From a virus: a stretch of 64,000 bases of DNA. The stretch is from positions 32,881 through 96,880 of the IMG/VR virus record IMGVR_UViG_3300032214_000566; one strand, 5' to 3'. The position numbers and the translations under genes were made by a program. The notes beneath the pieces were generated by a model. The model did no database searches. It saw only the letters and a program-made list of their open reading frames with translations, and was not told where the DNA came from. Below, in pieces: positions 13,071 through 53,700 of this stretch (positions within the stretch are counted from its first letter, which is position 1; each line of letters starts with the position of its first letter).

Positions 13071-14687
13071 TTAACAGTTGCCGTTTACTCTACATAAAAG
13101 TGTTATTTCACCACTCGTATCAACTTTATATACATAACCACCGTACTTGATATAATCCTCAACTATTGGTTTTGTAAGTGATGAATCTTGGTAAATAAAG
13201 ACACCATCAACTAAAGATGTACTACTAACTGAAGTGTAGAATGTTAAATCAACCCCACCGTCTGTTAATTGACAAACAGGACAGGAAACACTAAAACCAC
13301 CTTGACCATTCCAAACATTATATGATGGTGTAGGTGTTGGGGTCGGTGTTAAGCAATTTAAACAAGTACCATATGTTGTTGCGGTAGTTGCGGTAAATAT
13401 TGGTTGGTTAGACCATCTATATTCAGGAGATGGGTAATAATTCACAAAACTACCGATATATGTATAACATCCAATAGTTTGGTCTTTTATCACATCACCC
13501 ACAACAATATTACGTGGTGGGTATTCATCTTGAATTATCATCAAATTAGAATCACAAGCAGTAAATACAAATTGAGTATTAGGAGAATAAAATACTGTTG
13601 GTGTTGGTGTTGGACTTGTGGTTGGTGTTGGTGTTGGACTTGAAGTAGGTGAAGGTGTTGGTGTTGGTGTAATACAAACATTACATCCTGAATACACCTG
13701 AACAACTGAATTTAAATATCCACTAGCACTTCCTGTACTCTCACTTATATATGTCACACATTTTGGTAAATTATCTATCACCGCTTGGAATGTTGTTCCT
13801 GTATTTAAAGGAGTGGTTCCACTTATTATTGGTCCTCCAACATAGTAAAAACTTCCATCATTACAATCCTGTAAAACTTTAATTGTTGGGCAATTAAAAT
13901 TACCACTTTCAATCACAAACGTCACGGTCTCACCAGTAATTGAGTACCCATAAGCAGGTGTCGGTGTAGGGGTAGGACTTGGGGTTGGTGTTGGTGTAGT
14001 ATAGGCACTAAAGGTAATCGTTGCGGTAAATACGCAAGGGGTTGGAGTTGGTGATGGGGTAGGAGTCGGAGTTGGTGTTGAAGTTGGTGTAGGGGTAGGG
14101 GTTGGAGTATCAAAATTACAATCCAAAATAACATCGAAATCCAAACTACTACATGGATCAGGTGTCGGGGATGGTGTTATACAACTACCCGTATATTGTA
14201 TGGTTTCACTTAAATCGGGACAATATGAACTAGTTGGTTCTGAACCGAAAAAATAACAAGTTCCTGTCAATGAACTACTTAAACACCATTTAATATTATT
14301 ATAGAATATGTATCCACTAGTTGTTCCTGTCCAATATGGGTATCCATTATGTTCTCCAGCAACCACATAGTTACCACTATACCCACTGTAAGCATCATTA
14401 TTAATATCAACACAAATTTGATTACTACATGACGATCCGGTAAATGACAAACAAGTACTCGTATTACAATCTGCCTGTAACGTATAAACCCCACTAAGTG
14501 AAATAAATTGTATTGGTGTAAATCCTGTGGTATAAGCGGAAACTATTTCATAACATCCGTCAGGAACAACTGAGTCACCTGAGAATGAGAATACAGACCC
14601 AACCGATGAGGTGTATGCCCAACTAGCACCTGTATAGGTATATTGGTAAGCGGGGTAATTACAACCTTCAAATAATATATTTGCCAT
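13071..14687 (-). CDS. Cys-rich modular virion protein with (Thr-Pro)n linkers
   Basis: About 26 Cys in 538 aa; several TPTPTP tracts separating small domains. Confidence 0.7.
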   Translation of the reverse strand: MANILFEGCNYPAYQYTYTGASWAYTSSVGSVFSFSGDSVVPDGCYEIVSAYTTGFTPIQFISLSGVYTLQADCNTSTCLSFTGSSCSNQICVDINNDAYSGYSGNYVVAGEHNGYPYWTGTTSGYIFYNNIKWCLSSSLTGTCYFFGSEPTSSYCPDLSETIQYTGSCITPSPTPDPCSSLDFDVILDCNFDTPTPTPTPTSTPTPTPTPSPTPTPCVFTATITFSAYTTPTPTPSPTPTPTPAYGYSITGETVTFVIESGNFNCPTIKVLQDCNDGSFYYVGGPIISGTTPLNTGTTFQAVIDNLPKCVTYISESTGSASGYLNSVVQVYSGCNVCITPTPTPSPTSSPTPTPTTSPTPTPTVFYSPNTQFVFTACDSNLMIIQDEYPPRNIVVGDVIKDQTIGCYTYIGSFVNYYPSPEYRWSNQPIFTATTATTYGTCLNCLTPTPTPTPSYNVWNGQGGFSVSCPVCQLTDGGVDLTFYTSVSSTSLVDGVFIYQDSSLTKPIVEDYIKYGGYVYKVDTSGEITLLCRVNGNC

Positions 14688-14742
14688 GTAGGATTAACTT
14701 TATTATATAAATAATCAATTATTCATTTTATTAAATAATTTA

Positions 14743-15540
14743 TCATAAGAATAACTCAATATATTCTCTCCACTCACACTTTATTAAATTATATAACTCA
14801 GGTTGTTTAGTATATGTAAAATCAAACATCTTTTCATCGCTACCAACATAACCATTTGAAATGGCGTCAAGTGTTACATTTTTGAATGTTTCACATACTT
14901 CTATGACCCTATGTTTTGGTACGAATAATGACCCTCCTTGTATGAATCTTGTTTGTGACAATGCGTGGAATTCCGCATCCTCGAATCTTACGTAATCGTG
15001 ATGAGAGAAAAACGTAACTTTATCATTGTCTAACGAATTAATCTTATCTAAATTTGGCCATTTTACATTTTTTTTAGGGTGGTCATCTCTAATCACACCT
15101 GCATCCGCCCAAACATATAAATCAGCATCAAATAACCCCTTTTTAAATGAATCCAAAATATAAAATAACTTACTAAACATCACAACATTATATAATGGTT
15201 TAATCATTTCTGGTACGTCAAAATGTATTTTCTTTTTAAATTCATCACTAGACATTAATTTATCCAATGGTTCAAAAAATGTTTTATACCCCTCTATTTC
15301 TTCTAATGGTTGTACAATCATAATCGTCTTTTCTAAATTGGGGTCAACCTCTTTTCTGAATTCTAAAATTTGTTCTTTAAATTTTTCTTCTGTATAGATT
15401 ATTAGATTAGTATCTAAAAATAGAATACTCCTCATCCACCAAATATATGTGTGGTATGACATCGTGTAATTGTCCCATTTATCTCTACCTATATCAAATA
15501 GTGCTGTTACTATTGCTGTTTTTTTTATATCCATTCCCAA
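14743..15540 (-). CDS. HtrL/YibB (WlaTC-like) family putative glycosyltransferase
   Basis: TAIVTALFDIGR, YNVVMFSK, YVWADAG, FIQGG and VGSDE motifs typical of HtrL_YibB. Confidence 0.72.
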   Translation of the reverse strand: MGMDIKKTAIVTALFDIGRDKWDNYTMSYHTYIWWMRSILFLDTNLIIYTEEKFKEQILEFRKEVDPNLEKTIMIVQPLEEIEGYKTFFEPLDKLMSSDEFKKKIHFDVPEMIKPLYNVVMFSKLFYILDSFKKGLFDADLYVWADAGVIRDDHPKKNVKWPNLDKINSLDNDKVTFFSHHDYVRFEDAEFHALSQTRFIQGGSLFVPKHRVIEVCETFKNVTLDAISNGYVGSDEKMFDFTYTKQPELYNLIKCEWREYIELFL

Positions 15541-16271
15541 TTTATTTTCATATGTTTATGTTGTATATCCACTTGATTAACGTCGAATAAATCTGAAGTA
15601 TTATCAGATTTAATTAACGTATTAAGTTTAAATCCGTACTTATTTAACATTGTCGGCACAAAACCCTCAGAGTAACCATGTAACCCTTGTTCGTGTATCT
15701 CTAATAGTTTTTTCATCGCTTTATTTGAAAATCTATTAGTTGGGAAAAATGAACCGAATTTTTCATTTACATCTTCAGGTAATAAATCCCCATCACCAGG
15801 AAATCTTTCAAACCACATATGTTGTGATGTTGTTCTATTATCCAATTTTGGTATATTTTCTTGGGAAATAACATTTTCATTTTTAAAAATAAAGTACCCT
15901 AAGAAATCCGAGTCGTCCTTATCGGTACCTTCAAAAAATAAATTCCAATCTTTCATTTTCACATCATCATCAAAAAACCAATAGTAATCGTAATTTGGGT
16001 GGTCAATATAAAAATTTAACATCCTAAGGTGAGCATAAAACCATATAATATTTCTATTCCCGTAAGAGTTCCAATAATGTTTTTTACTAACATCACCATA
16101 AAATTTTAATCTATCTCTTAATTCTTTTTCGGTATATGTAAAACCAAGATTAAATGTCGAATCTTTACTGATATCCGAAATCCAAGTTATTTCTTTTGGG
16201 AAGTTTCTCCAATGGTTTGCATACGCAGGGTACACATCAGGTGTTGTACAAACACAATAAACACTATTCAT
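15525..16271 (-). CDS. GT-A fold glycosyltransferase-like protein
   Basis: HPNYDYYWFFDDDV (DxD after a hydrophobic strand), RFSNKA, SEGFVPT. Confidence 0.62.
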   Translation of the reverse strand: MNSVYCVCTTPDVYPAYANHWRNFPKEITWISDISKDSTFNLGFTYTEKELRDRLKFYGDVSKKHYWNSYGNRNIIWFYAHLRMLNFYIDHPNYDYYWFFDDDVKMKDWNLFFEGTDKDDSDFLGYFIFKNENVISQENIPKLDNRTTSQHMWFERFPGDGDLLPEDVNEKFGSFFPTNRFSNKAMKKLLEIHEQGLHGYSEGFVPTMLNKYGFKLNTLIKSDNTSDLFDVNQVDIQHKHMKINWEWI

Positions 16272-17082
16272 ATTCTTTTGTTATAATTTCATTCCATTCA
16301 GGGATTCTATTGAATTGGTGAACAATATCATAAACTTCTCCCTTATGATTGTAAAGTTTATTATCTTTAAGATAGGGTATACCCCCGTATCTATTTGTTA
16401 ATGTATTTTTAAATCCCCATGATTCAAAAAATTGTGTCGGTCCCCCAACTGCACAATGTAATGTCCAACCCTCATCAAAAGAGAAAATTTTCAATCTATC
16501 AATCTCATTTTTTGCAATCATTATTATCAAAGCAGCTTGGTCTTTTATGTTGTGGGAGTTATTACTATTCTCACACATATCATTTAATTTAGTATACACC
16601 TTTATTAAAGATTCTTTTCTACCACCAATAACTCCTGAACATATAATGTCATGAGTTCTACAAATTTCTAAATCTTCAGGAAAAACTTTAGCAATTACAT
16701 CACCATTCCATGGTTCTTCATTTATTCTTAATCCTTCAGACCCGACAAATACATCATACTCATCTTCCATTTTAATAAACGGGTCCGATTGGAACGCAAC
16801 ATCAAATACGTCAGTTACCATAAATAAATCGTAATCTGATTCTGTAATAAAATCTAATGTGTGTTTAAGTCTTTTGTTATTAATATACCACGTATCTTCA
16901 ACCGTTACCGGAATTGGTATTATACCCAATTCGTGACATATTTGTATTTCATCGTCATTAGTATTGGCACAAAGTAAAACAACGTCCCCATTAGTGTGTT
17001 TTTTAAAACTATGTGACCACACTTTAATTTTATTTATATTCTTACTTATATTGTTAGATAACCCAACTAAAACTTTTTTCAT
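16264..17082 (-). CDS. GT-A fold glycosyltransferase-like protein
   Basis: MVTDVFDVAFQSDPF, ICSGVIGG, DQAAL and IVHQFNR motifs as seen in viral glycosyltransferases. Confidence 0.68.
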   Translation of the reverse strand: MKKVLVGLSNNISKNINKIKVWSHSFKKHTNGDVVLLCANTNDDEIQICHELGIIPIPVTVEDTWYINNKRLKHTLDFITESDYDLFMVTDVFDVAFQSDPFIKMEDEYDVFVGSEGLRINEEPWNGDVIAKVFPEDLEICRTHDIICSGVIGGRKESLIKVYTKLNDMCENSNNSHNIKDQAALIIMIAKNEIDRLKIFSFDEGWTLHCAVGGPTQFFESWGFKNTLTNRYGGIPYLKDNKLYNHKGEVYDIVHQFNRIPEWNEIITKEYE

Positions 17083-17085
17083 ATT

Positions 17086-17658
17086 TTAACAATTATAAAG
17101 AGTTATCTCCATTTCCTCATTGAATCCGAAAATACTTGGCCATAAGTACTCTATCATCCAGTTATTGTGTGAAACAATTTCTGTGGTGGTTATCGTACTT
17201 TGTAGTTTTTCGTAAAATTCTTTAGGATTTTTAAGTATTAATTCTTTAGCTAATATTGATTGTGTACCTGCAATAAATTTTATAGGCATCGTAATTTCAA
17301 TATTATTCGCCTTAGCGTATTCAATAGATTGGTTAATAATATCGTCACCATCTCTTACATATGTAATACCCAAAGGATAATATTTTAACTGACTATTAAA
17401 ATTATTTACCTTATCTAAAAATGAAGGACAATGGTCAAAGGGGTTATCTTGAGTGAAACAAACAAAATCAGGTAGGTTATCATAATTTCTTATTATATAA
17501 TCAAAATAAACAATAGCATCATAACCAACATTAGGAAAATTCAATTCGAACTTATCGTTGTTTTTAGGGTTTTTATTATATACAATGTATGGGTAATTTA
17601 AATTTTTAGTCCATTCCAAATCTTCTTGGAAATGACAAATAACAACAACTAAATTCAT
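17086..17658 (-). CDS. DUF3431 family protein (putative glycosyltransferase-related)
   Basis: VVICHFQEDLEW, YNK, PNVG, YIIRNYDNLPD...FTQDNPFDH. Confidence 0.72.
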   Translation of the reverse strand: MNLVVVICHFQEDLEWTKNLNYPYIVYNKNPKNNDKFELNFPNVGYDAIVYFDYIIRNYDNLPDFVCFTQDNPFDHCPSFLDKVNNFNSQLKYYPLGITYVRDGDDIINQSIEYAKANNIEITMPIKFIAGTQSILAKELILKNPKEFYEKLQSTITTTEIVSHNNWMIEYLWPSIFGFNEEMEITLYNC

Positions 17659-18908
17659 TTTTTAAATTTTTCTTCTATTTTATCACACCAACCTTTAGAA
17701 GTTGAAAAGGGCCATAAGACCCACGAGTGCGGTGTTTCCGCAGTTTGGAATGTTCTACATATTTCGATTTTGGTTCCTTCTGTTTCTAAGATCCTTTTAA
17801 TCTCATTTCCATCAGCATCTTGTCTAAAGATGGTCTCACCACCTTCTCTATGAAATGCAACCACCCAAAACTCATAATCATTTTCAGGTAATTGGTCTTT
17901 ACCCAAACTAAAACACTTAGTTACCTCTTTAGTGAAACTATCTATCCACTCCTCCTCATTTCGATAATCATAAGGGTTCGGAGGGTAGTTCTTTTGTAAA
18001 GTATAATCCTGAACTGACCTTTTTTCGAATAACAATCCTGAATAAATTTCATAGTCTCTTAAGGTTCTTTCAGTACCAAAACCATATTTACCAACATGAC
18101 CTTCTTGGTCTAAACCATCCATACCAAAAAGTTTTCTATTTAATAAGTGTGATGAATCATTTTTTAAATGCCATTCTTTGTCATCATCCCATTGTTTTGT
18201 TCTACCATTTCTAGTATATTCATGCCAAACCACAACTCTATGTGGATGAAATAAATCATATCCATGAGTGAAAGCCCTAACGGCTATTGATATCTCTTCT
18301 CCATGAAAGTAAAATTCAGGATTATGTTGTACTTCTCTTGAGAATTGACCTAATGTGAAACAAAAGTGGGCAGAATAAAATCTTGACGGTACGGGCATGT
18401 TTATTTCTTCCCAATTAGGTATCGTTTCAGGTAAGAAGAAAACCGCCCCCTCAGGTATAAATTTATCAAAAGCCATTCTCCAAGGTACTTGTACCCTTCC
18501 ATGAGGGTCATTTTGTGGATTATACGATGGTACGTAAGACGTTAATAAGGGTTTTGGAATACCCATATCTTTTAATTGGTTTAACATATTAATCAATGTT
18601 TCATCCCAATTTTTTTCAAATCTCATATGAGAGTCTATTTGAAGGGTGTACTCCTCGTCATTATATAATTGTTGTATTTGGTGTCTAGCCCAACATGCCC
18701 CCTTAGATTCTTGATGTGGGATATTAAGTACTTTAAACCTTTTGTCATCATCATATTCCGATAAATCATCGAAAGTATCGTCAGGGTGATATTGTTTTGC
18801 AATAGCAAAGACTAAATTTTCGGGGTATTTTGCATTTTCAATACAGCTCTTAATTGTTGGTTTTAATTCAGGATCACGGTACGATGCAATTTGGATAAAA
18901 ATCTTCAT
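17655..18908 (-). CDS. GT60-like polypeptide/hydroxyproline GlcNAc transferase (Pfam GlcNAc family)
   Basis: IFIQIASYRDPE, SKGACWAR, LQIDSHMRF, FHGEEISIAVRAFTHGYDLFHP, HEY: hallmark motifs of the Gnt1/GT60 family. Confidence 0.85.
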   Translation of the reverse strand: MKIFIQIASYRDPELKPTIKSCIENAKYPENLVFAIAKQYHPDDTFDDLSEYDDDKRFKVLNIPHQESKGACWARHQIQQLYNDEEYTLQIDSHMRFEKNWDETLINMLNQLKDMGIPKPLLTSYVPSYNPQNDPHGRVQVPWRMAFDKFIPEGAVFFLPETIPNWEEINMPVPSRFYSAHFCFTLGQFSREVQHNPEFYFHGEEISIAVRAFTHGYDLFHPHRVVVWHEYTRNGRTKQWDDDKEWHLKNDSSHLLNRKLFGMDGLDQEGHVGKYGFGTERTLRDYEIYSGLLFEKRSVQDYTLQKNYPPNPYDYRNEEEWIDSFTKEVTKCFSLGKDQLPENDYEFWVVAFHREGGETIFRQDADGNEIKRILETEGTKIEICRTFQTAETPHSWVLWPFSTSKGWCDKIEEKFKK

Positions 18909-18953
18909 TTTATTTTTATTTAAAAAGTAATAAAATGGTTGGTTAAATAAATA

Positions 18954-20192
18954 CTATATGAATGCGGTTGTCACACTGCCAGGACTTTGTGTAGTGTACC
19001 CATAAGCTCTAGGGGTTGTTTGTAATAAAGTTATCGCATAAGGAGAAGTTTCATTAATTCGATATAAATTACCATTACTATCCATAATATGTATCTTATT
19101 TTCGTAACCAACAATACCAATAGGTGTCGTCACTGAAGCTGAAATGTCAATTTCAAAATCTAATGTTGAACTTGCAGAATACACATATTGTTGTATATAA
19201 CTTCCATCACCGTTACTACCTAACACTATAAAGTCACCTGTAGTTGATAATGCTATATCGTATATCAATGGGTTACCGGAAAACGCACCTGCCAATGAGG
19301 TTATTTTAGTATATGTGGCAGCACTTGACCCGATACCTACTTCAAATATCTGAGTTTCACCATCTCCCGAAACATAAAGACTGGCAATCAATCTTCCATC
19401 ATTAAATGCCTCTAATCCTTGTCTACTATTATATGTTTGATAATTAGAAATTGCTCTATTATATGTTGCAACAACAGGTGATAATGTCAGATCCCATTCA
19501 TCTATTGCCCCGTCAGGCGGGTTAATCCAAAACTTATCGGAGGTATTCGCAATAGACCCCACTTGAGTAAATCCTGATAATGTTATAGGTCCGGTTTCAG
19601 TATTGGTTCCAACATCATATACGTAATAGTCATCAACATCAAAATCCTTAGCAATTACAAATTTAGGGTCGGTTGTTGGTGTAGGTGTTGGCGTTGGACT
19701 AGTTGTTGGTGTAGGAGTTGGTGTTTTTGTTGGGGTTGGAGTAGGACTTGTTGTTGGTGTAGGAGTTGGTGGGATAGGTGTTGATGTTGGGGTCGGAGTA
19801 GGGCTCGTTGTTGGTGTAGGCGTTGGTGGAATAGGCGTTGGTGTTGGGGTAGACGTAGGGCTAACTGTTGGCGTTGGTGTAGGACTAACTGTTGGCGTTG
19901 GTGTAGGGCTGATAGTCGGGCTTGGGGTCGGTGTAGGTGTAGGGCTGATGGTCGGTGTTGGTGTCGGGGCAGGAATACAAATTTGATTTTGCGTAAAAAT
20001 ACATCCATTTGTGTCGACCAATTTTAAACCAACATAATAATAGTTAGGGAAAAAATAATCAGTATCCACCACAACTGTAGGTGGTATTTGACAACTACCT
20101 GATATTAAAAAGCAAGACGTATATCCAGTATCACATAAAAATACATCATATGGACTTGTTCCACTTGTTACACCAGTTATTTGTATTATCAT
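18954..20192 (-). CDS. Fibre/spike protein: Cys N-domain, ~100 aa Thr-Pro stalk, probable beta-propeller head
   Basis: Three-part architecture visible in the translation. Confidence 0.7.
19671..19973 (-). repeat. Coding low-complexity (Thr-Pro)n / SPTPTPT repeat
   Basis: About 100 aa made almost entirely of T, P and S. Confidence 0.9.
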
Positions 20193-20198
20193 CTATTT

Positions 20199-22952
20199 TT
20201 ATAATTCTTGTACATTTAAAGTTGGTGCTGTTGATTCCCCAAATTTAATACTACCACCACTTATCTCATTAGCCTTTAAATAGTACGTATATGTTCCAGC
20301 GGCAGGCGCATCTATATAACTCATACCAAATGGTGTGTTTTCACTTGCGGCACTACCTTCAGTATGCACAATAGCCCCAAGTTGTGTAGAGTCTCTCCAA
20401 AATTGTAATTTACACCAATAACCAGCACCTGTATTTTCAGCATCTCCATAAGCACTTATTCTAACAGGATTACCATATGTCGTTATAGTAGTACTAAGTA
20501 TTGTTTGTGGGCCCCCACTTGCTGATAATGTGACGGAAGCCCCTCCACCAACTTGTGAATAGTTAATACTACTTTTTACTCTACCAGTTACTGTTAAATT
20601 ACCCGCATCTGTTAAACTAAGTAAAGTACTATTATATGCGTTATTAATAATTTCAAAACTACCAAAAATATCCGTTCTAAATGTTTTAGATGGTGTTGTT
20701 GCACCAGCTGCCGTGTTAGTTACTCTAATAAAATCAGTATAACCCGTACCTCCAATAGTTCCACTACCACTAAACGTTAATAATGCGGTTGTTGAATTTC
20801 CACTTGTTGTTATGGTACCTTTAGTTCCTGTTATCTTATTACTATTACCATTAAACGTTGTTGCCGATATGTCATTACCAATTATAGTTGACCCGGTTAT
20901 TGCACCATTTGTGGTTATTTGAGAACCAACAATCTCACCTTTGGCCGTTATAAACGACGTTATACCACCTATTGCGTTTATCCCTTCAAATAAATTTGTT
21001 GAGATGTCAGGGTTACCTGTGCCATTTTTAATTGAGAATGCACCTATACCTGATGTCGTTATAATTTCAGGGTCTGCTGAATTGTCGTATGCCTGTTGTA
21101 ATGTTGTTGTTGATAAACCACCTGAACCTCCAAGTAACTCACCAAATTTAGATACTTGCGTAAATACAGCATCATCAACATCAGTTAAATCCGTTGCTCC
21201 GTCTTTAACCGTCAATAAACCAATTAATATTCCGTTTGCTAAGTTATTGGGATAAACCACAAAAATCTCACTCTGGATTGCGGCTATCGCCTTTGCTAAA
21301 GTTGGGTAATACGATTGTCCATATTGTATTCTAACAAGTCCTGTTGGGAATTGATAAATTCTTTGTGTCGTGTAGTTTCCTGTACCAGGCACCGCAGTAA
21401 CAACTCCACCAACATCATAATTTGTTGTGTCGATTGTTGTTGTATTAGTAAATGTTCCACCCGTTTGTGTTCTATATTGGAAAGTTGTTGGTGAGGTTCC
21501 TGATAAATTAACATTATTTGGTGATAATTGATTTGTTGACCAATTAATTCCGTTACCCCATAATGTGCCCGCGGATTTATCAATATTTAAATTAACTCCG
21601 TTTGCAGATACAATAACACCATCATTAATTAAATTTATTGGGTCCCACAAATCACGAAGTGCCGACATTGGTGACACGTCATAATCAACCGTATTATTAA
21701 CATTTTGTATTGTTGTTCTATTAGGGTGAACTACTTTACCTAAATAAATGTTTTCTCTTCTTTGTTGTGATGTTGGAAATGTTCCTTGTTGGAATACTGT
21801 TCCTCCACTATTAACTAATATATAAGTTGAGTCAGATAATGATATCCCTGTGATTGAATATGCCGTATTTCCCGTGTATATAATATTTCTAACACTAGGT
21901 AATGTTGCAAATTCATATGTATTTGATACAATCCATCCTCTCATTGGTGAAATTGAAATTGTTGTACCTGACGTGTAAGTTAAACCTGTAAATTCGTATG
22001 TCCCTGTTGAAATAACATTACCTTCAAGGATATTTCTTTCAATGTCGGTTAACGAAAGATTAATATCTTCATTGTTAATATTAACATATATGGCACCTAT
22101 TGTTGTCCCCGATTTTAAAGTGTACCCAATTTCATTTGTTCTCGCACTGAAAGCCAAGGAAGACGTTGTTGTTACATAACCACCTGGTATTGTGTCCGAT
22201 AAATATATAATACCACCGGGAGTATTTGAAACCGTAACTCCGCTTAATACCCCATTATTAATTGTGTATCCCGTTTGACCATTTAATATGTCATTTTCAA
22301 TAAGTCCAATAACTTGATTGTTACCAGATTTAGACGCAATCGCCAATTGTACTGATGGTGTAATATTAGACGAACTAACTAATTTAACAGCACTACCTTT
22401 AAGTAAGGTGACACCCGTTTCATTAATAACCGTTGTTCTTAAAATACCAAGGTCATTTGACGGAGATATTCCACTTGTCCCCGCAGAACCTGATGTTCCG
22501 CTAGTTCCTGAAGATCCCGACGTACCTGATGTACCACTTGTTCCTGAAGATCCTGACGTACCGTTAGCTCCTGATGTTCCACTAGTTCCTGACGATCCTG
22601 ACGTACCGTTAGCTCCTGATGTTCCACTAGTTCCTGACGAACCTGATGATCCTCTAGTCCCTGAAGTACCGCTAGTTCCTGATGAACCTGAAGCTCCCGT
22701 AACACCTGATGAACCTGATGAACCTGATGAACCTCTAGTACCTGAAGTTCCACTACTACCTGATATTCCACTTGTTCCTGAAGACCCATTAGTACCTGTA
22801 CCCCCACTTATCGATGCGGTTACAGATGAAAAATAAATAGCACTTGTTACACCAGTTACTTCATTCGTATAATCAACTATAACCATTATACTATTAGGTG
22901 ACCCCGAACCAATAAATGGTAGTTGTGATATTCTTGAATCTTGTTGTGACAT
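20199..22952 (-). CDS. Tail/head fibre protein with a collagen-like (Gly-X-Ser) segment
   Basis: N-terminal DSRISQLP fibre-type motif; 37 uninterrupted G-X-Y triplets; Thr/Gly-rich beta domains. Confidence 0.78.
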   Translation of the reverse strand: MSQQDSRISQLPFIGSGSPNSIMVIVDYTNEVTGVTSAIYFSSVTASISGGTGTNGSSGTSGISGSSGTSGTRGSSGSSGSSGVTGASGSSGTSGTSGTRGSSGSSGTSGTSGANGTSGSSGTSGTSGANGTSGSSGTSGTSGTSGSSGTSGTSGSAGTSGISPSNDLGILRTTVINETGVTLLKGSAVKLVSSSNITPSVQLAIASKSGNNQVIGLIENDILNGQTGYTINNGVLSGVTVSNTPGGIIYLSDTIPGGYVTTTSSLAFSARTNEIGYTLKSGTTIGAIYVNINNEDINLSLTDIERNILEGNVISTGTYEFTGLTYTSGTTISISPMRGWIVSNTYEFATLPSVRNIIYTGNTAYSITGISLSDSTYILVNSGGTVFQQGTFPTSQQRRENIYLGKVVHPNRTTIQNVNNTVDYDVSPMSALRDLWDPINLINDGVIVSANGVNLNIDKSAGTLWGNGINWSTNQLSPNNVNLSGTSPTTFQYRTQTGGTFTNTTTIDTTNYDVGGVVTAVPGTGNYTTQRIYQFPTGLVRIQYGQSYYPTLAKAIAAIQSEIFVVYPNNLANGILIGLLTVKDGATDLTDVDDAVFTQVSKFGELLGGSGGLSTTTLQQAYDNSADPEIITTSGIGAFSIKNGTGNPDISTNLFEGINAIGGITSFITAKGEIVGSQITTNGAITGSTIIGNDISATTFNGNSNKITGTKGTITTSGNSTTALLTFSGSGTIGGTGYTDFIRVTNTAAGATTPSKTFRTDIFGSFEIINNAYNSTLLSLTDAGNLTVTGRVKSSINYSQVGGGASVTLSASGGPQTILSTTITTYGNPVRISAYGDAENTGAGYWCKLQFWRDSTQLGAIVHTEGSAASENTPFGMSYIDAPAAGTYTYYLKANEISGGSIKFGESTAPTLNVQEL
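22464..22796 (-). repeat. 37 x Gly-X-Y triplets (mostly GTS/GSS), including a perfect 45 nt tandem duplication at 22551-22640
   Basis: Counted from the translation; TCCTGACGTACCGTTAGCTCCTGATGTTCCACTAGTTCCTGACGA occurs twice in tandem. Confidence 0.9.
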
Positions 22953-22960
22953 AAATTTTT

Positions 22961-23239
22961 TTACAAAATAATTTTATAACCGTTTTCTTGTAATAAAAAG
23001 AAACCGTTCTCTTGTAATAAATAGTATATTGGGCAACTTACTAATTGGAAAAATTCACAATTAGTTGAATCAATTACTTTGACCATTAGAACTTCAGCGG
23101 TTTGGAATAAAGGACTTAGTGTAAATGTACCTCCAGAAGTTCCAATATTTTGACAGTTGTTACCATTCTCGTCACATATAAAAAACGTATACGGCGGGGT
23201 ACCTCCTGTTTCACCTGTGATTATTAAGTAACTACCCAT
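22961..23239 (-). CDS. Small fibre-adaptor-like protein with a C-terminal (LLQENG)x2 motif
   Basis: Shared Cys N-domain plus YLLQENGFFLLQENGYKIIL, directly upstream of the collagen-like fibre. Confidence 0.65.
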   Translation of the reverse strand: MGSYLIITGETGGTPPYTFFICDENGNNCQNIGTSGGTFTLSPLFQTAEVLMVKVIDSTNCEFFQLVSCPIYYLLQENGFFLLQENGYKIIL

Positions 23240-23240
23240 T

Positions 23241-25910
23241 TTAACAAGTGAACTTTGTGATTATTATACCATCCCCGTCTACTTGTACAACATTTCTTGT
23301 AGTTATTGGACAACTATTTGATAAATAGATTCTTGCCCATCCGCCATTTTTAGGGTCTAAGTTAGTACCAACATATCTAGTCGTTAATGTCGGATTAGTG
23401 TAAACAACATTACCTAAATTAATTGTGGCTCCTGTAGTATATAATTGAACATTACATGGTGAGTCAATACAAATATCTTCATCTGCAGTGTTATAATATT
23501 CTCCATTAGTATACCAAGCAACACCAGCATAAGTTGGAGTTGGTGTAGGTGTTGGTGTAGGAGTTGAACTAATAGTTGGTGTAGGAGTTGGGGTTGGTGT
23601 CATTGTAGGAGTTGGGGTTGGTGTTTTAATTTGGTCGCAACTTATATCATAAGTTATAGATAATTCCAATTTAAAATAGTTATTACCCATTTGGTCACAA
23701 TCACAAACTATGATTAATACATTATTTAATACATTAACCGTATATGATGTGATTTGTGGAATACTTCCTAATATGGTTTCTATCGCTCTTTGCCAAGCTC
23801 CGTCATCACTGTATATAAAGTTTTGAGTTGTTGCGGAACCATTTATCGTAAAGACCGCCTCTAAAACCGCAGTATTTAAAATACAATTAGTATATCCCGT
23901 AGTTAAATCAATAAATCCTTCATTTAACATTTTAGAAATCGATCTCTTAGTTCCTGAAGTATTAACAAAAGTTTTATTAAATATATTGTATCTTGACCTA
24001 CCCGATACTATTACTTGATTACATGTTATTGTAAAAGGCCAATAATTAGTACAACCGTCACTATCAGTAATAGTTACATCATATGTCCCACCTGAAAGAC
24101 CTGTTACAGTACTTCCCGTACTCCCTGATGGTGTATTATCAGACCAATTATATGTGAATGGTGGTGTGCCTTCAAAAATAGTTACAGTTGCTACACCATC
24201 ATTAGCATTTTTACATTCTGTTTTAGTAAGTGTGGTTGATAAACTGCCACTTAAGGGTACGTTCAAATTTAAAGACACCGTACAATTTTCAGAATCGGTA
24301 ACTTGTAATATATAATCACCAGGAGTTAAATAATTAAATGTGTAGGAACTAAACGGCACATCAATTAAATTTTGTCCATTACTTAAAACATAATCCAAAG
24401 GAGCGGTATACCCCGTACCAACTTCAACCGATATTACTCCGTTTGGTGACCCGCAAGAAGATGGTGTTGTTGTGGCTGTTAAATTAAATTTATCAACAGC
24501 ACTTATTTCAATCGTTTCTGTGTAAAGACAACTACTTGATTGTCCTGAAATTTTTAATAAATAAGTATCAGAGACTAAATTACCGAACGTTACATTTTGA
24601 TTTTGAGTGTATTCCTCATAAACAACATTCGTATTTTGACCCGATAATGAGTATAAATAAAATCCATATAACCCAGTAATTGTTGTTTTTAAAGATGCGT
24701 TGTTTTTACTACAAATAGAGTTTGTTATTACATTTTTGACATCCCTAAAACCATTTACAGTATTAAGTGTTGTTAAAATATTTAAAGTACAGAAATTAGC
24801 ATCTTTTACCAAAATAGAATAGTCCCCACTTGGTAATCCACTTATCGTGAAAGTGTCTGATAGTGTAACTCCAAAGTTACCAGATGACGCAGAATAATAG
24901 AAAGGTACTGTACCACCCGTTAAAGTTATCTCTATTTGGCCGTTACTATCAAAACAACTTGGTGTTGTGTTATTTATTAACCCAATACCTAATTGTTCGG
25001 CGGACCCGACATAACTGGATTTTGTTACACCACAACCTTTAACATCAGTCACAGTTACTGAGTATTCACCAATAGTTAACCCTGTTATTGTTTGACCTGT
25101 ATTTCCATTAGACCATAAATACGTATAAGGACCGACACCTGTAATACCAGTCACCGCCAATTTACCCGTATCCAATAAACATCTCGATGTATCAACTTTC
25201 CATAGACCAAAATCAAGTTCAGTACTCGCCGAAATAACCACATTTTCAGTTCTTGCTGTTGTAATACTATCATCCGATATTAAAACGTAATAAATACCCT
25301 CATCTAACTCTGTAAAGGTATATGGGAATGTTTCAGCTGTCTCAATTAATAATAATGATTCATCTTTATATAATAATAAATCATATGGTGGGAAAAGTGA
25401 CGTACCACTAACAGTTAGGTATCCATTTGTTAACCCACAATTGGTCCCGTTAGCGTCTATAATATTGCCTTCATTACAAGTCCCGACAGCAATATTGATG
25501 TATGTTTCGGCGTTTTGATAACCTAAAGTATCATTTAACCTAAACACATATGTCGTGGCACTAAGACCGGTATATGTAATTTCAGTAGTACCTGTTTGTG
25601 TACTTAATCCGTGACCAATAGGGTATATAGGGTCAACCGTGTACGGTGGATAACCACCTGTTGGGTTTATGACTATAGTTCCCGTCGGTGAGTCACACGT
25701 ACCCGTTACGGTAAAATAATACCCAATAACAGGTAAATCAATACAGTTAGACGTACAAGTACTTCCAGAGTCAATAACTACGTTTACAACACTTCCGGAA
25801 TATGATTGATTAAGACATACGGTTTCTCCGGAAGATACACCAACTCTAGCAACCCCACAACAATCTATATAAGAGTAAACACCATTAGTATATCCAGTAA
25901 TACAAGCCAT
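23241..25910 (-). CDS. Large SprB-repeat virion protein with a Thr-Pro linker and C-terminal Cys module
   Basis: Multiple units such as GPYTYLWSNG...GLTIGEYSVTVTDVKGC and GTPPFTYNWS...GLSGGTYDVTITDSDGC. Confidence 0.75.
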   Translation of the reverse strand: MACITGYTNGVYSYIDCCGVARVGVSSGETVCLNQSYSGSVVNVVIDSGSTCTSNCIDLPVIGYYFTVTGTCDSPTGTIVINPTGGYPPYTVDPIYPIGHGLSTQTGTTEITYTGLSATTYVFRLNDTLGYQNAETYINIAVGTCNEGNIIDANGTNCGLTNGYLTVSGTSLFPPYDLLLYKDESLLLIETAETFPYTFTELDEGIYYVLISDDSITTARTENVVISASTELDFGLWKVDTSRCLLDTGKLAVTGITGVGPYTYLWSNGNTGQTITGLTIGEYSVTVTDVKGCGVTKSSYVGSAEQLGIGLINNTTPSCFDSNGQIEITLTGGTVPFYYSASSGNFGVTLSDTFTISGLPSGDYSILVKDANFCTLNILTTLNTVNGFRDVKNVITNSICSKNNASLKTTITGLYGFYLYSLSGQNTNVVYEEYTQNQNVTFGNLVSDTYLLKISGQSSSCLYTETIEISAVDKFNLTATTTPSSCGSPNGVISVEVGTGYTAPLDYVLSNGQNLIDVPFSSYTFNYLTPGDYILQVTDSENCTVSLNLNVPLSGSLSTTLTKTECKNANDGVATVTIFEGTPPFTYNWSDNTPSGSTGSTVTGLSGGTYDVTITDSDGCTNYWPFTITCNQVIVSGRSRYNIFNKTFVNTSGTKRSISKMLNEGFIDLTTGYTNCILNTAVLEAVFTINGSATTQNFIYSDDGAWQRAIETILGSIPQITSYTVNVLNNVLIIVCDCDQMGNNYFKLELSITYDISCDQIKTPTPTPTMTPTPTPTPTISSTPTPTPTPTPTYAGVAWYTNGEYYNTADEDICIDSPCNVQLYTTGATINLGNVVYTNPTLTTRYVGTNLDPKNGGWARIYLSNSCPITTRNVVQVDGDGIIITKFTC

Positions 25911-39041: not shown

Positions 39042-40883
39042 TTATGAAAAGTCTACTGATGTTAAGTTTTTAACCCTAACTTTAATATTTTTAGCAGGGT
39101 ATCTTATTTGATATATTTGGTCCGGTTCGGCAAATATCGTATTATCAATAAGTTCAATCTGTTTTGTTGCGGTGTCCGTATATCTTTGTGATGTTTCAGA
39201 AGAAGAATATACACCACCAACTTTATTATAAACCCTAACATCAGAAAGAGTATTTACCCCATTAATATTTTGTATAAGTTGTTTAATTTCAGATACGTTA
39301 ACATTTTCACCCAATTCTCTTGTAGATGGTAACATGTAATTAGTAACACTATTAATTACTTCAGTTATAACCTGACTTTGAGATCCCGTAGAATTTAAAA
39401 CAATGAAAAATTCAAACTCAAGATCAATTACTTTAGCAACCTCAATAGAAATGTAATCATTAATCATTCTATATTTAGAAAGATATGTAGCTAAATTGGT
39501 TTTTAAATTATTTGATACCGTCTGAGTTAGTGCGCCTTCAGTATCAAATGATAAAATCTTAACTAATATTTTATTATTGAATTCAGTTATAGAAACTTTA
39601 GCAGGTGCTCCGAATCTACCCGGCATGTTATCTATTAGCGATTTGTAATCATTAATCGTTACCGCCCTTTTTTGTGCTGCAAAGTTAAATGTAACCATAT
39701 TTCTAACCTCCTCAACTGAAGGTTGATTGGCTCCACCTATCGCTGCGGTTACGTTATTAACTCTCATCGATTGAGTTACGTTACTATTGACAATATCAGA
39801 CGGTCCATTAACGGCAAAGTCGATAAGACCTACTTGGTTAATCGCACCAACGCCGACATTACTACCCAATCCACCACCAGTTCTGTATTGAACAAACAAA
39901 GTGGTGTTAGGTTTAACCGTCAAACCAAGTCCGATATTGTTTTGGTAATTTTGTAATTTTAAAGGAACTCCAACTGTTGTAAATTGTTTTAATTGCTCTT
40001 CAGGTGTTACGGTACCCGCACCAAATTGTATTTTTAAAAATCCTTCAGGAGTAAACTCAGTTATAAATCTATTCTCGGTTTTTAGATACCTACCAACTTT
40101 AACCCCTGCCTTATCAACCGGTTTAGTTGGGTCTTCAATAAATACGGTATCCTCAACTAAAGCATCTACTTCATACCATTTATCTGTTGATGTTTCAAAC
40201 TCAGTAAAGGATGGTGTTGCTTGGTAATTAGTCCCGTCTTTTTGAATAATAGACGTAACCCCTAAGACATTTTTTTCAGGTAAAAAAAAATTAAAAAATG
40301 GTGCAACGTCCGCAGATGTTACAACTTTTTTAAATACTTGTGTACTACCATTAACTACGATTTCTCTTTTAGTAATAATATAACTTGTTGGTGCCGAATT
40401 GTTTTCACTAAATTGTGGTATTTTTGTTCTATTAATAAACCCTTCTCTATTGAATTGTGATGAAAAATCTATATCATAAACAGTTTCAAACGTTGTACCC
40501 CCACCATTAAATTGTGCTCCCGATCTTAAAATACCCAAATAACGAGTATCTTCAGCATCACCATAAGCAGGAACAGTAATGGATATATCTATAACCGCCA
40601 CGGATGGTCTATAACCAGGTATTTTTAATCCGTAAGTTCTCGCAATATTAAAAATAGAAGACCTTTGTTGTGCATATTGTAACACAGTTTCTTGTACGCT
40701 TCTATCAATATGATAATTTAAGTTATCTCCAATAGCAGCATTTAAATCCATTAATACTGAAAAAACAGAAGCATCATTAAAATTTTGAATTAAATCAGGA
40801 TAATATTGTTGTGTATAATCTATCAGGTCCTGTCTTAGTCCCTCAAAATCTCTTTCAGTGTAAGATATTTTTCTATTTGCCAT
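39042..40883 (-). CDS. Baseplate wedge protein, T4 gp6 / baseplate J-like
   Basis: RDFEGLRQDL, QETVLQYAQQRSSIFNIARTYG, IQFGAG, AAIGGA, QKRAVTINDY. Confidence 0.9.
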   Translation of the reverse strand: MANRKISYTERDFEGLRQDLIDYTQQYYPDLIQNFNDASVFSVLMDLNAAIGDNLNYHIDRSVQETVLQYAQQRSSIFNIARTYGLKIPGYRPSVAVIDISITVPAYGDAEDTRYLGILRSGAQFNGGGTTFETVYDIDFSSQFNREGFINRTKIPQFSENNSAPTSYIITKREIVVNGSTQVFKKVVTSADVAPFFNFFLPEKNVLGVTSIIQKDGTNYQATPSFTEFETSTDKWYEVDALVEDTVFIEDPTKPVDKAGVKVGRYLKTENRFITEFTPEGFLKIQFGAGTVTPEEQLKQFTTVGVPLKLQNYQNNIGLGLTVKPNTTLFVQYRTGGGLGSNVGVGAINQVGLIDFAVNGPSDIVNSNVTQSMRVNNVTAAIGGANQPSVEEVRNMVTFNFAAQKRAVTINDYKSLIDNMPGRFGAPAKVSITEFNNKILVKILSFDTEGALTQTVSNNLKTNLATYLSKYRMINDYISIEVAKVIDLEFEFFIVLNSTGSQSQVITEVINSVTNYMLPSTRELGENVNVSEIKQLIQNINGVNTLSDVRVYNKVGGVYSSSETSQRYTDTATKQIELIDNTIFAEPDQIYQIRYPAKNIKVRVKNLTSVDFS

Positions 40884-50750: not shown

Positions 50751-53700
50751 TTACGGGAATAACGTGAATACCTTTTTTATGATGTTAAGGTATGCCGAAT
50801 ATGCCGAAGATAATAAATTATTATTTTGGACATTAATTAGAACATAATCTCTTATTTCTTGTGCTGTTTTCCCATACCCATAACCAGTATCCCAAGTAGA
50901 AATTATTAATTGTACAATACCTTTTTGGTATTTCTCATCTTCATCATCACCTGTGTTAATATTTTTTAAATCAACAATTAATGGTGACATGTTTTTATTT
51001 AAATTATACACCACATTAATAGGGTCTGTCAGATTATTAAACGAAAACAATGGGATTGCAGCCCCATCGACATCCGCACAAACCAACTCACTTAAAACCG
51101 GATTATCCGCAAAAACATTAGCGGCACTTATTTCAAATAAATTATTATTAATAGGTTGTAATAAATCTTCTTCATATCCGTTAGATGATCTTGTAACCGC
51201 AATTGTTGCCATCATAATCGCAACATACCTATCAATTCCAGGAATCGCATTTATTTTGTTAGCCATTTCAGAATATGTTACACGACCTCTATTCATACCA
51301 ACAAATGGTAATGTCTCATATTTAGCATCGACTAATAATTGACATTCATCCTCAGGTTTTAAAGTTGTTCCAATTGATGCGTCTTGGTCCAAACTAGTTT
51401 CTACAGGAGTAACGGTAGTCGCTGGATTTGGTGTTTGTAAAATTTCTTGCTGATATTTTTCTAAATAATTTGTTTTAATATATGTTGCCAAGCTGTTAGG
51501 TTGAGGTAATGCGTATTTTGGCATTCTATTCCCCTCAAAAGAAGTCACAAAATCAGTATCACTAATAGTATGAGATACACTACTAATTAGGTATGGTCCG
51601 TAAAATAATGGAACATGTCTTAAATTAAAATACATCATAGGTTGTATCATTACATTACCTAATGATTTAATAGTCGCATGGTACGACGCACTTTTATATA
51701 AAGAGTACATCGAAGTTGTTTGTTGAGCAATTTTATCCCCATTTACCCCGTTAGACATTTGGTCTCTAACTGCAAATGTTGCTGCAGTATTCTTCTTATC
51801 GTCCATACCTACCTCAACACTTGAGAACATGTTTTGGTTTTGTATACCAAAATCCACATTAAATCCAACAACTTTATTGGACAACGCAAAATTATATTTA
51901 GTGATGTCCGTAGGAATCCTAACCGGATTGGTTGATGGGTTTCTCAAATCAAAACTATCATCCCCATACACCACAAACGCATTATCTTTTTGTTGTGGAT
52001 GTTCAGATTCCTTACCAACATATATTAATAAAAACTTAGGTCTTGAGTCAAGATAGTTTACTTCGGTATATGTACCAAAAAGAGAATTAGGAACATCTAT
52101 TTGTTTTGGTTGTGAATTTTTAGTTGGGGACTGATTACCATAAAAATTAATGTAAGCTGGCATAGCATAAAACAACATGTTATCTTGTTTTTTCATTATA
52201 AAACCAATTACATCTAATATAGAAATGGTATTATCTCCCTTTAATATCTCAGCGATACCCATAACATCAACTTGTAATGAATTACCGACATCACCATTAG
52301 CAGTATTTTGAAAAAGAAAATCCTCAAATATTGTTCTAGTTGTTAAATCACTACCAGCAACCCATTTATCGTTAAACGCCTGAAAAGTATTGTACGTACT
52401 TAATTTTGTTACATCACCACTAACAGATGAATTAACACCTGATTGTGTTGATTTTGTTGATGGTAAATTCTTATTAGAATAGTTAGAAATCTCTAAAACC
52501 ATGTCGGCCTGTATTGCGTTTTGGTCATTTAAAAATTTATTAAATTCAGTAAAGAATGTTGTATTGGTCCACGGATTCCCATTAGTTAATGCCTTAAGTT
52601 TTTCTTTCGCATAAATTTTAATTATAGGGTAAAGAACTTTTATGTTGTCCGAAGTGAATTCTATGTTTTGTTCAATAAAAAAGTCAGTAATTGACGATCC
52701 ACTATTTGTGTACGCAGCATAATTAGAAAACCCAACATATTTTTGTAATGTTTTCCAAGCATCGGAATTATTAGTTTGACTGCTCAGTAAAGTGACATTT
52801 AAAGTATCACCAGGTAATGACCCATCAACATAAGGGTTATATGTTATCCTATCTACAGGATGTAAAGTAGTGTCATTTGAAAAACTATTAAACACTCTTC
52901 TATTAAAGTTTCCGGGATTTCCTAGTTTTAAAATACAATCAAACTTTAAAAACTCTTCCATTTTTTTAGATGCTGAGATTTGTTGAGCCTGAGCAATACT
53001 AACACAATCTTGGTTTTGTTGGTTTGTTATACCATTAGGTAAATCAGTTTCTTTTACTTTTAGTAAATTTAAAATTTGGTCCTTAAGTCTTCGTTGTTTA
53101 ATATTTTTAATCTTATTAGTATCAATATAATTTGGTGAAGTTTTCTCTCCCTTTAAAACAAGTATCTCTGATGCATCAGCATTTGGATCACAAAACCCTA
53201 AAAATGCTCTTTCAAACTCATCAAGTATGTCAGGAGTAAACACTGAAAATAATTCCGGAATATCACTATATTTACCATTAAATGATACATCATAATCAGA
53301 CGCGTATTGATCAGGTGTTGGTTTTTGTATCTTCGATAAATCATAGTACCCATAATTACTTAATCCCCATAATGGTCTAACGGACCCGTTATACATTGCA
53401 GGATTATCTTTAATATCTATTTTTATTTTACCGGTGTTAAAACATTCTAAAACCGATTGATTAAATGGGGTACCACCATTTGATGGTATGGGTATATAGA
53501 CTTTATTATTTTTATCTACGGACGCGTCTCTATCAAAAATTAAATATTGAAAATACGAATTAACCGCAATACTTCTATTTAAATCCAATGAGTCTCCACT
53601 GAATGGCATAAAATAAGATGAGTTAGTATTAGAACCAATTCTTAATTTATTTTTATCGTATGCGTCTGAAAATTCTTGCCCATTATATGTCGTAAATAAA

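Follow-up and report, generated by a model that had tools for sequence, protein, structure and literature searches.

Introduction

Glycosyltransferase (GT) clusters encoded by mycobacteriophages Che8, Corndog and Myrna put O-linked glycans on virion proteins, for which two reports (PMC12582341, PMC10568470) cite Freeman et al. 2023, and in an F1-cluster phage the annotation places an HtrL_YibB gene close to the GTs (PMC10453261). Here, we analysed a 64,000-nucleotide stretch of viral DNA, called the window in the following (bases 32881-96880 of the 96,880-bp record IMGVR_UViG_3300032214_000566), in which a cassette of five genes headed by a GT of family GT60 lies between genes for proteins with long Thr-Pro tracts (TP tracts). 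As in the mycobacteriophages, the GTs are phage-encoded and stand beside structural genes, here tail-fibre and SprB-repeat genes downstream of a baseplate wedge gene. To our knowledge, experiments have demonstrated glycosylated phage particles in only a few actinophages, and the GT60 family has so far been characterised only in protists. Work of Freeman et al. from 2023 is said to place the actinophage acceptors, those of mycobacteriophages included, in capsid and tail-tube proteins, in contrast to the TP stalks proposed here. No GT60 homologue was found by tblastn in actinophage records, GT60 being the only cassette enzyme queried.

The protist enzymes TcOGNT-2 (Trypanosoma cruzi) and DdGnt2 (Dictyostelium) attach alpha-linked N-acetylglucosamine (alpha-GlcNAc) to Thr residues in mucin-like peptides, KPPTTTTTTTTKPP being one example (PMC3769586). 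These GT60 polypeptide alpha-GlcNAc-transferases belong to the same Pfam family (PF11397) as the window enzyme, with Thr-rich acceptors there and TP tracts encoded next door here, but they are membrane-bound Golgi proteins, whereas the window GT60 is soluble, phage-encoded and extended by a C-terminal domain of ~120 amino acids (aa). Gnt1, the Skp1 enzyme of Dictyostelium and Toxoplasma, resembles it in being a soluble, cytoplasmic, protein-modifying GT60 followed by further soluble GTs; it differs in having a single hydroxyproline acceptor and in needing a prolyl 4-hydroxylase. In Gram-positive serine-rich-repeat adhesins, the cytoplasmic GtfA/GtfB put GlcNAc on Ser/Thr repeats, neighbouring GTs extend it, and the glycoprotein is exported. 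The logic of an initiating enzyme with extending neighbours acting on a low-complexity repeat is the same, but the initiators are of the GT-B type (GT4), export uses the accessory-Sec pathway and the system is non-viral. Giant viruses offer a likeness of another kind in the capsid of chlorovirus PBCV-1 and the mimivirus fibrils, where structural proteins are glycosylated in the cytoplasm, independently of the host, by virus-encoded gene sets that vary between lineages, but with eukaryotic hosts and with other enzymes, linkages and acceptors.

Among cultured phages, a tblastn search with GT60 against 50,697 phage records gave matches only in the Xanthomonas jumbo phage XacN1, Xanthomonas phage Xoo-sp13 and Stenotrophomonas phages CM1 and RAS14, the last three being cultured carriers like XacN1. 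ORF334 of XacN1 is 46% identical to the window GT60 over 98% of the protein and heads a cassette that ends in an HtrL-like gene, near baseplate wedge genes and the gene for a 3313-aa TP-tract protein. XacN1 proteins with TP tracts include ORF325, ORF232-237 and ORF180. XacN1 virions contain at least two Schiff-positive protein bands, which the authors propose are made by the phage's two GTs; they did not identify the proteins and drew no link to TP tracts (PMC5852040). XacN1 differs from the phage studied here in its lineage, its high GC content and its cassette, which includes a carbamoyltransferase and further genes. A literature search on GT60 in phages returned nothing useful, and the pairing of GT60 with TP tracts, the hypervariability of the cassette and its bacterial counterparts have no description in the literature that was searched. 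An earlier reading of the window, made from its letters alone (the sequence-only reading), had proposed such a system and knew of no phage in which it was characterised, a statement to be qualified in view of XacN1, for whose virion glycoproteins a role of the phage GTs, ORF334 included, had already been suggested (PMC5852040).

From gene content, predicted folds and comparative genomics, we consider it probable, though well short of certain, that the window carries a phage-encoded, GT60-started and hypervariable system for cytoplasmic O-glycosylation of TP stalks on the phage's own virion fibres.

Results

The GT60 cassette and its TP-tract neighbours

The cassette spans 14743-18908 on the minus strand, which carries all long open reading frames (ORFs) of the window, as five back-to-back genes with intergenic gaps of -16, -8, +3 and -4 bases. 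It is separated by 45 bp from the upstream gene for a 412-aa protein and by 55 bp from the downstream gene for a 538-aa protein. In none of the five enzymes does any 19-residue segment exceed a Kyte-Doolittle (KD) hydropathy of 1.1, so all five are soluble and without a transmembrane segment. The sequence-only reading had described five contiguous cytoplasmic-type enzyme genes at these coordinates, and strand, tight packing and solubility all agree with it.

The first cassette gene (17655..18908, -) encodes a 417-aa protein of the GT60 family, assigned to PF11397 ('GlcNAc') at 1.6e-68, with 232 bits against a cut-off of 21, and to phrog_24687 ('glycosyltransferase') at 3.9e-165; a profile search of the genome gives the same assignment. 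An alignment of 11 homologues, XacN1 ORF334 included, has 104 invariant columns. The D92-S93-H94 (DSH) motif is invariant in all 11, a weak match to GT2 is found at 4.2e-4, and the C-terminal extension of ~120 aa is conserved. A phmmer search against the sequences of the PDB found no solved relative. By analogy with its family, GT60 is a predicted initiating polypeptide O-linked N-acetylhexosamine (HexNAc) transferase.

The second gene (17086..17658, -) encodes a 190-aa DUF3431 protein (PF11913 at 4e-15), a putative accessory enzyme for which the literature search on DUF3431 gave nothing useful. The usual last gene of the cassette (14743..15540, -) encodes a 265-aa HtrL_YibB protein, matching PF09612 at 3.9e-27 and, below the cut-off of that model, TIGR02192 at 2.4e-30; a search of NCBIfam yielded nothing beyond such sub-threshold YibB matches. 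The two genes in between encode proteins of 272 aa (16264..17082, -) and 248 aa (15525..16271, -) that have no Pfam match. For each, metagenomic homologues were gathered, 35 were aligned, and the protein was folded with AlphaFold2 (AF2) and compared to known structures with Foldseek. The 248-aa model, with a predicted local distance difference test score (pLDDT) of 93.4, is GT31-like, leading to B3GalT5, B3GalT6 and B3GNT2 (~3e-6), and its DDD at 101-103 is invariant; its look-alike clusters in the ESM Atlas are mostly viral, with Nucleocytoviricota (giant viruses) dominant. The 272-aa model (pLDDT 93.6) is a retaining-type look-alike, leading to the catalytic domain of UGGT (GT24) and to the GT6 A/B transferases GTA and GTB (~1e-8); D91-V-F-D94 (DxxD) is invariant, and the ESM Atlas leads to PF03407. 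As judged from the modelled folds, both proteins are GT-A glycosyltransferases. The family calls made for all five genes without database searches were thus borne out, GT60, DUF3431 and HtrL/YibB by Pfam, including the proposed check against PF11397, and the GT-A-like pair by AF2 and Foldseek.

The proteins encoded on both sides of the cassette are the predicted acceptors. The 412-aa protein directly upstream of GT60 (18954..20192, -) has an N-terminal SprB-like module, a tract of Thr-Pro and Ser-Pro (TP/SP) of nearly 100 residues (positions 75-172) and a C-terminal globular domain. The 538-aa protein directly downstream (13071..14687, -) is Cys-rich and modular, with four TP linkers at residues 192-217, 229-244, 338-363 and 445-454. 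A possible third acceptor is the 889-aa SprB-repeat protein (23241..25910, -; PF13573 at 4.3e-20), likely a fibre or adhesin, whose TP tract lies at residues 761-792. The sequence-only reading had noted TP tracts in the same three proteins. With the cassette as origin, the three genes stand at -1, +1 and -4, and their tracts span 10-98 residues. At the DNA level the tracts are degenerate repeats with 61-93% matches, and not the product of recent perfect slippage.

TP tracts accompany GT60 in phage genomes

A DNA pattern coding for TPTPTP has 19 occurrences on the 97-kb contig; every one falls in the genes of the 412-, 538- and 889-aa proteins, and there are none of the reversed control pattern. 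TP-rich ORFs number 3 out of 99, those at -1, +1 and -4. We compared the source contig with three near-complete relatives, a set of four genomes with 1166 ORFs, 27 of which (2.3%) are TP-rich. The gene 46-58 bp upstream of GT60 is TP-rich in all four, although the four proteins differ (156, 412, 645 and 1314 aa). Each of the relatives has its homologues of the fibre module (the SprB, 541-, 736- and 538-aa proteins) at a distance of 57-190 kb from GT60. Since the TP-rich upstream gene persists at this distance, GT60 keeps a TP-rich partner outside that module. More widely, the cassette has a TP-rich gene as its immediate neighbour (-1 or +1) in 20 of 22 GT60 clusters defined at 80% identity, and in 47 of 52 defined at 90%.

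The statistical association of GT60 with TP tracts is also seen at the level of whole genomes. All nine GT60-positive phage genomes carry TPTPTP matches, 11-39 each: 19 on the source contig, 28, 11, 26 and 39 in its relatives G001, G002, G003 and G004, 29 in XacN1, 19 in RAS14 and 26 in Xoo-sp13. By comparison, 33 of 35 GT60-negative phage genomes or contigs have none, and the other two have 1-2. Seven large GT60-negative phages have zero, including three that share the baseplate wedge and RsoM2USA, whose DNA polymerase makes it the closest of the GT60-negative relatives of XacN1. As a background sample we used 29 contigs of at least 30 kb picked by an arbitrary 14-mer: GT60 is present in one, which belongs to this clade and has 28 TPTPTP matches, and among the other 28, 26 have none and two have 1-2. 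Conversely, contigs picked only for a (TP)6 tract contain PF11397 in 9 of 36 cases, vs one of the 29 random contigs. The sequence-only reading had proposed testing this co-occurrence in related phages, and it was found in 20 of 22 clusters by adjacency and in nine of nine genomes; relatives keeping the cassette but lacking TP-rich proteins, which it held would point to another function, were not found among those examined.

As a separate observation, long (TP)6-coding tracts are also present on giant-virus contigs from metagenome-assembled genomes (MAGs), which are GVMAG records of IMG/VR (L226, L260, L261, L283 and L291).

The cassette varies around a GT60 core

In IMG/VR, 323 contigs carry a GT60 that is 65-89% identical to that of the window, and 327 carry the nearby 736-aa protein, so that GT60 looks near-core in the clade. 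Gene maps of 160 loci place GT60 always first and HtrL usually last, an HtrL homologue being present in 73 of 82 GT60 loci, as a 265-aa or a ~550-aa form. GT60 and HtrL enclose a variable stretch of between none and eight or more genes. Outside the closest relatives, the complete set of five genes occurs at a single further locus (L022), and DUF3431 has the same distribution. The cassette first described as a five-gene unit is therefore present as such in the window but not conserved as a whole, the constant core being GT60, usually with HtrL.

The variable genes form 70 sequence families. In a Pfam scan of cassette families, for which the best 25 of 37 families were listed, the transferases include GT2, GT10, GT11, GT25, GT31, GT34, GT61 and RXYLT1-like proteins; the other enzymes are FkbM and other methyltransferases, GNAT acetyltransferases, a carbamoyltransferase, a sulfotransferase, a DegT aminotransferase and a sugar nucleotidyltransferase. 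This content is that of a glycan-building and glycan-decorating island, and would fit the building of an oligosaccharide. With GT60 constant, HtrL closing the cassette and the inner genes freely swapped, the glycan structure would differ from phage to phage, as at an O-antigen locus, and the turnover of extending enzymes implies that this structure is under diversifying selection.

Some HtrL homologues are longer, ~550-780 aa (L054:13471-15141, L003:14306-15946 and L360:10803-13142). The one in L360 is a fusion with an FkbM methyltransferase, and the C-terminal part of the one in L054 has a weak, sub-threshold match to the TET-associated glycosyltransferase PF20691 (1.6e-4). In the complete relative G002, two 2OG-Fe(II) oxygenase domains of the prolyl-hydroxylase type (PF13640) are encoded at 287408-293181 (L166, L167), one of them in a 623-aa ORF. 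PF13640 is absent from the source contig, the complete relatives G001 and G003, and XacN1; with such an enzyme in only one relative, a hydroxyproline route of the Gnt1 kind was ruled out as the general mechanism.

Neighbours of the cassette among relatives

The 538-aa protein has orthologues with 70-138 TP-rich residues that follow the cassette in nearly all syntenic loci, making it a conserved +1 partner in the sub-clade. Domains present in the upstream TP proteins of relatives are ConA-like lectin, legume-lectin-like or DUF285, and some of these proteins match phrog_8510, 'virion structural protein'. The small protein of 92 aa encoded at 22961..23239 (-) has a module ('ITGxTxGTxPY..F.CD') in common with the N terminus of the 412-aa protein (BLASTP 2e-5), and in relatives this type of N-terminal module is fused to TP tracts directly upstream of GT60. 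In many other relatives, the N-terminal module of the 412-aa protein is a free-standing gene of 95 aa. The two closest relatives encode a much shorter counterpart of the 412-aa protein, with 73-112 aa (L005:9714-9935 and L006:9597-9935), the N-terminal module alone, which is either a real truncation or an assembly collapse of the repeat.

Two genes upstream of the cassette lies the gene for a 917-aa collagen-like tail fibre (20199..22952, -; PF01391 at 5.7e-15, tail-fibre phrog_16641 at 2.3e-23). It was credited in the sequence-only reading with 37 G-T/S-S triplets; the actual figure is 27 G-[TS]-S within a single run of 38 Gly-X-Y triplets (residues 50-163). Among relatives this fibre is not conserved beside GT60, and it was therefore dropped as a candidate acceptor. 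A plus-strand ORF of 172 aa over the same gene (22318-22836), with PDVPLVPE-like repeats, is the mirror frame of the collagen-like repeat, an artefact and not a gene.

GT60 loci in bacteria

A search with the phage GT60 alignment found 225 relatives in bacterial genomes, with 37-63% identity among the 80 loci listed, and GT60 is commonly paired with HtrL in these genomes as well. Of the 363 ORFs no more than three genes from GT60, 30 are TP-rich, vs five of the 384 lying beyond that distance on these loci (odds ratio 6.8, p = 6e-6).

Two settings stand out. In Jiulongibacter sediminis, Arcticibacterium and Ectothiorhodospiraceae, GT60 adjoins a small protein with more than 100 residues of TP/SP repeat and an N-terminal Arg-Arg leader that is Tat-like as judged by eye (L360:6941-7729, L393:6645-7625 and L399:9280-9831; -; isolate or MAG genomes). 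These proteins sit by GT60, a carbamoyltransferase and the FkbM-HtrL fusion, the order of enzymes being that of XacN1 ORF334-333-330, and may be glycosylated in the cytoplasm, then exported. In Achromobacter, Ralstonia, Trinickia and Burkholderia (L392, L397, L415 and L420), GT60 lies inside type VI secretion system (T6SS) clusters with TssF, TssG, ImpA_N and IcmF. Its neighbours there are an Rhs protein and a VgrG spike, the latter built of Phage_GPD plus the gp5 C-terminal domain and containing 87-136 TP-rich residues; this suggests that T6SS spikes are possibly glycosylated. The acceptor candidates of phages and bacteria are all made in the cytoplasm, which matches the requirement of a soluble enzyme.

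In two MAGs, of Saprospiraceae and Planctomycetaceae (L363:5918-13867 and L377:2-9265), GT60 is flanked by TP-rich proteins of 587-1147 aa. The downstream genes of these contigs look phage-like by eye, and they may represent a third phage lineage with the same pairing.

Source contig and setting

The source record has a CheckV completeness of 33% and a GC content of ~32%. Near-complete contigs of related phages measure 290-304 kb, hence the source contig is a fragment of a jumbo phage, uncultured and from freshwater. A megablast of the cassette region against phage records gave zero matches, and thus no close cultured relative. The baseplate wedge subunit (39042..40883, -; phrog_219 at 1.8e-22) marks a tail and baseplate module and is 26-28% identical to its counterparts in Flavobacterium and Microcystis phages. 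Gene order runs from this wedge gene through large unannotated proteins to the cassette and fibre region, then to replication genes (RuvC-like, primase, SbcCD). Two giant ORFs, of 2128 and 2036 aa, stand back to back at 50751-57137 and 57446-63556 of the window (-).

On the side of the host, the best matches to the phage GT60 in cellular assemblies, among them Saprospiraceae, Lewinellaceae and Cytophagales assemblies, have 56-63% identity and are low-GC Bacteroidota MAG contigs, one of 230 kb (L342-L350; Saprospiraceae, Lewinellaceae and Bacteroidia). Either these contigs are phage DNA binned wrongly, or they hint at a host of the Saprospiraceae type, to which the SprB repeats of the phage proteins also point.

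Discussion

In the mechanism that we favour, the soluble GT60 would transfer the first sugar to Thr or Ser of the TP tracts in the host cytoplasm. By family analogy, this sugar would be alpha-GlcNAc, taken from UDP-GlcNAc, and the targets would be the neighbouring 412- and 538-aa proteins and probably the SprB-repeat protein too. The other four enzymes, the GT-A pair, DUF3431 and HtrL, would lengthen or cap the sugar chain, and the fibre proteins so modified would then assemble into virions with mucin-like glycosylated stalks, which may be extended, protease-resistant, and adhesive or shielding. What the analysis shows directly is the gene content, the folds and solubility of the enzymes and the association of GT60 with TP-tract proteins, whereas acceptor, sugar, benefit and a place of the TP proteins on the virion are inferred. 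Priming by GT60 and extension by its neighbours on virion proteins had been put forward before these comparisons, and adjacency, co-occurrence and bacterial recurrence now speak for it; the collagen-like G-T/S-S fibre, also named at the time, is unsupported as a target because it is not a conserved neighbour.

Several observations weigh against this mechanism. HtrL, GT25 and the GT9 of XacN1 belong to families otherwise tied to synthesis of the lipopolysaccharide or lipooligosaccharide (LPS/LOS) core, and neither the 412- nor the 538-aa protein has a Pfam or PHROG match proving it a virion component. A TP-rich neighbour is found in only 25 of 74 bacterial GT60 loci. Among six small phages whose complete genomes have a (TP)6 tract, five lack GT60, so TP linkers do not require it. 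Because just two lineages supply the GT60-positive phage genomes tested, the counts at genome level lack independence, and the adjacency could partly reflect that both features sit in a hypervariable host-interaction region.

Were the TP tracts plain flexible linkers, the cassette could still glycosylate the virion elsewhere, on the capsid, the tail or the collagen-like fibre, which we regard as unlikely. In its favour, TP linkers occur in phages without GT60, the targets in actinophages are said to be capsid and tail-tube proteins, and the collagen-like fibre rich in G-T/S-S lies only two genes away. That fibre is, however, not a conserved neighbour, whereas GT60 keeps a TP-rich upstream gene even where the fibre module lies 57-190 kb off; the GT60-negative jumbo phages tested have no TP tracts, and the bacterial pairing involves TP proteins that are not fibres. 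Remodelling of the host LPS/LOS core on the cytoplasmic face, which could block superinfection or keep progeny from sticking to debris, would account for the presence of HtrL_YibB, a family found in LOS/LPS core loci of enterobacteria, Campylobacter and Acinetobacter (PMC4172580), as well as for GT25 in the variable cassettes and the GT9 gene near that of XacN1, and LOS core transferases are likewise soluble. Yet it leaves the link of GT60 to TP tracts unexplained in all its settings (phages, Tat-leader proteins and T6SS spikes), the best 25 of 37 cassette families include no lipid-linked initiating transferase, flippase or polymerase, and the characterised GT60 acceptors are all proteins (PMC3769586). 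On balance, we think this function quite improbable.

Glycosylation of host or non-structural phage proteins, in a takeover or effector function, is suggested by the PHROGs category of the GT60 family, 'moron/host takeover'. It also has a precedent in bacterial pathogens, which have soluble GT-A enzymes that modify cytoplasmic host proteins. A multi-enzyme, hypervariable glycan island is nevertheless unlike single-sugar effector transferases, and the tight link to TP-tract genes would go unexplained, making such a role very unlikely in our view. A last alternative is glycosylation of the bases of phage DNA by the cassette, in the manner of T-even glucosyltransferases or TET-associated transferases. 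The cassette adjoins DNA polymerase in relatives and in XacN1, and the match of a long HtrL to PF20691 mentioned above, weak and sub-threshold, would also be in line with it. Against it, no TET/JBP match (PF12851) was found in five genomes in a search run without a positive control, a ThyA/hydroxymethylase-family gene is inconsistent among relatives and absent from the complete G002 despite its large cassette, and digestion of XacN1 DNA with restriction enzymes produces patterns (PMC5852040 Suppl. Fig. S6C). Moreover, up to 8-10 glycan-building or decorating enzymes are far beyond the known needs of sugar modification of DNA, and we hold this alternative to be extremely improbable.

Glycosylation of TP stalks on virion fibres thus remains the reading that we prefer. 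Beyond phages, we tentatively suggest, with somewhat less than even confidence, that GT60, usually with HtrL, may be the core of an undescribed cross-domain 'cytoplasmic mucin' system of prokaryotes that would O-glycosylate Thr/Ser-Pro repeats ahead of export or assembly, serving phage fibres, T6SS VgrG spikes and small bacterial proteins with Tat-like leaders, in which swapped extending enzymes would give a lineage-specific glycan.

The preferred reading is directly testable, as there are cultured carriers and a public virion proteome, that of XacN1 (ProteomeXchange PXD008065). If it is true, aquatic jumbo phages of a group that is both large and abundant, together with cultured Xanthomonas and Stenotrophomonas phages, would bear lineage-specific glycans on their fibres. 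This would bear on phage adsorption and stability, on recognition by immune systems and grazers, and on phage engineering through glycan shielding. It would also give a first function to the bacterial GT60 and HtrL genes, possibly including the glycosylation of T6SS spikes.

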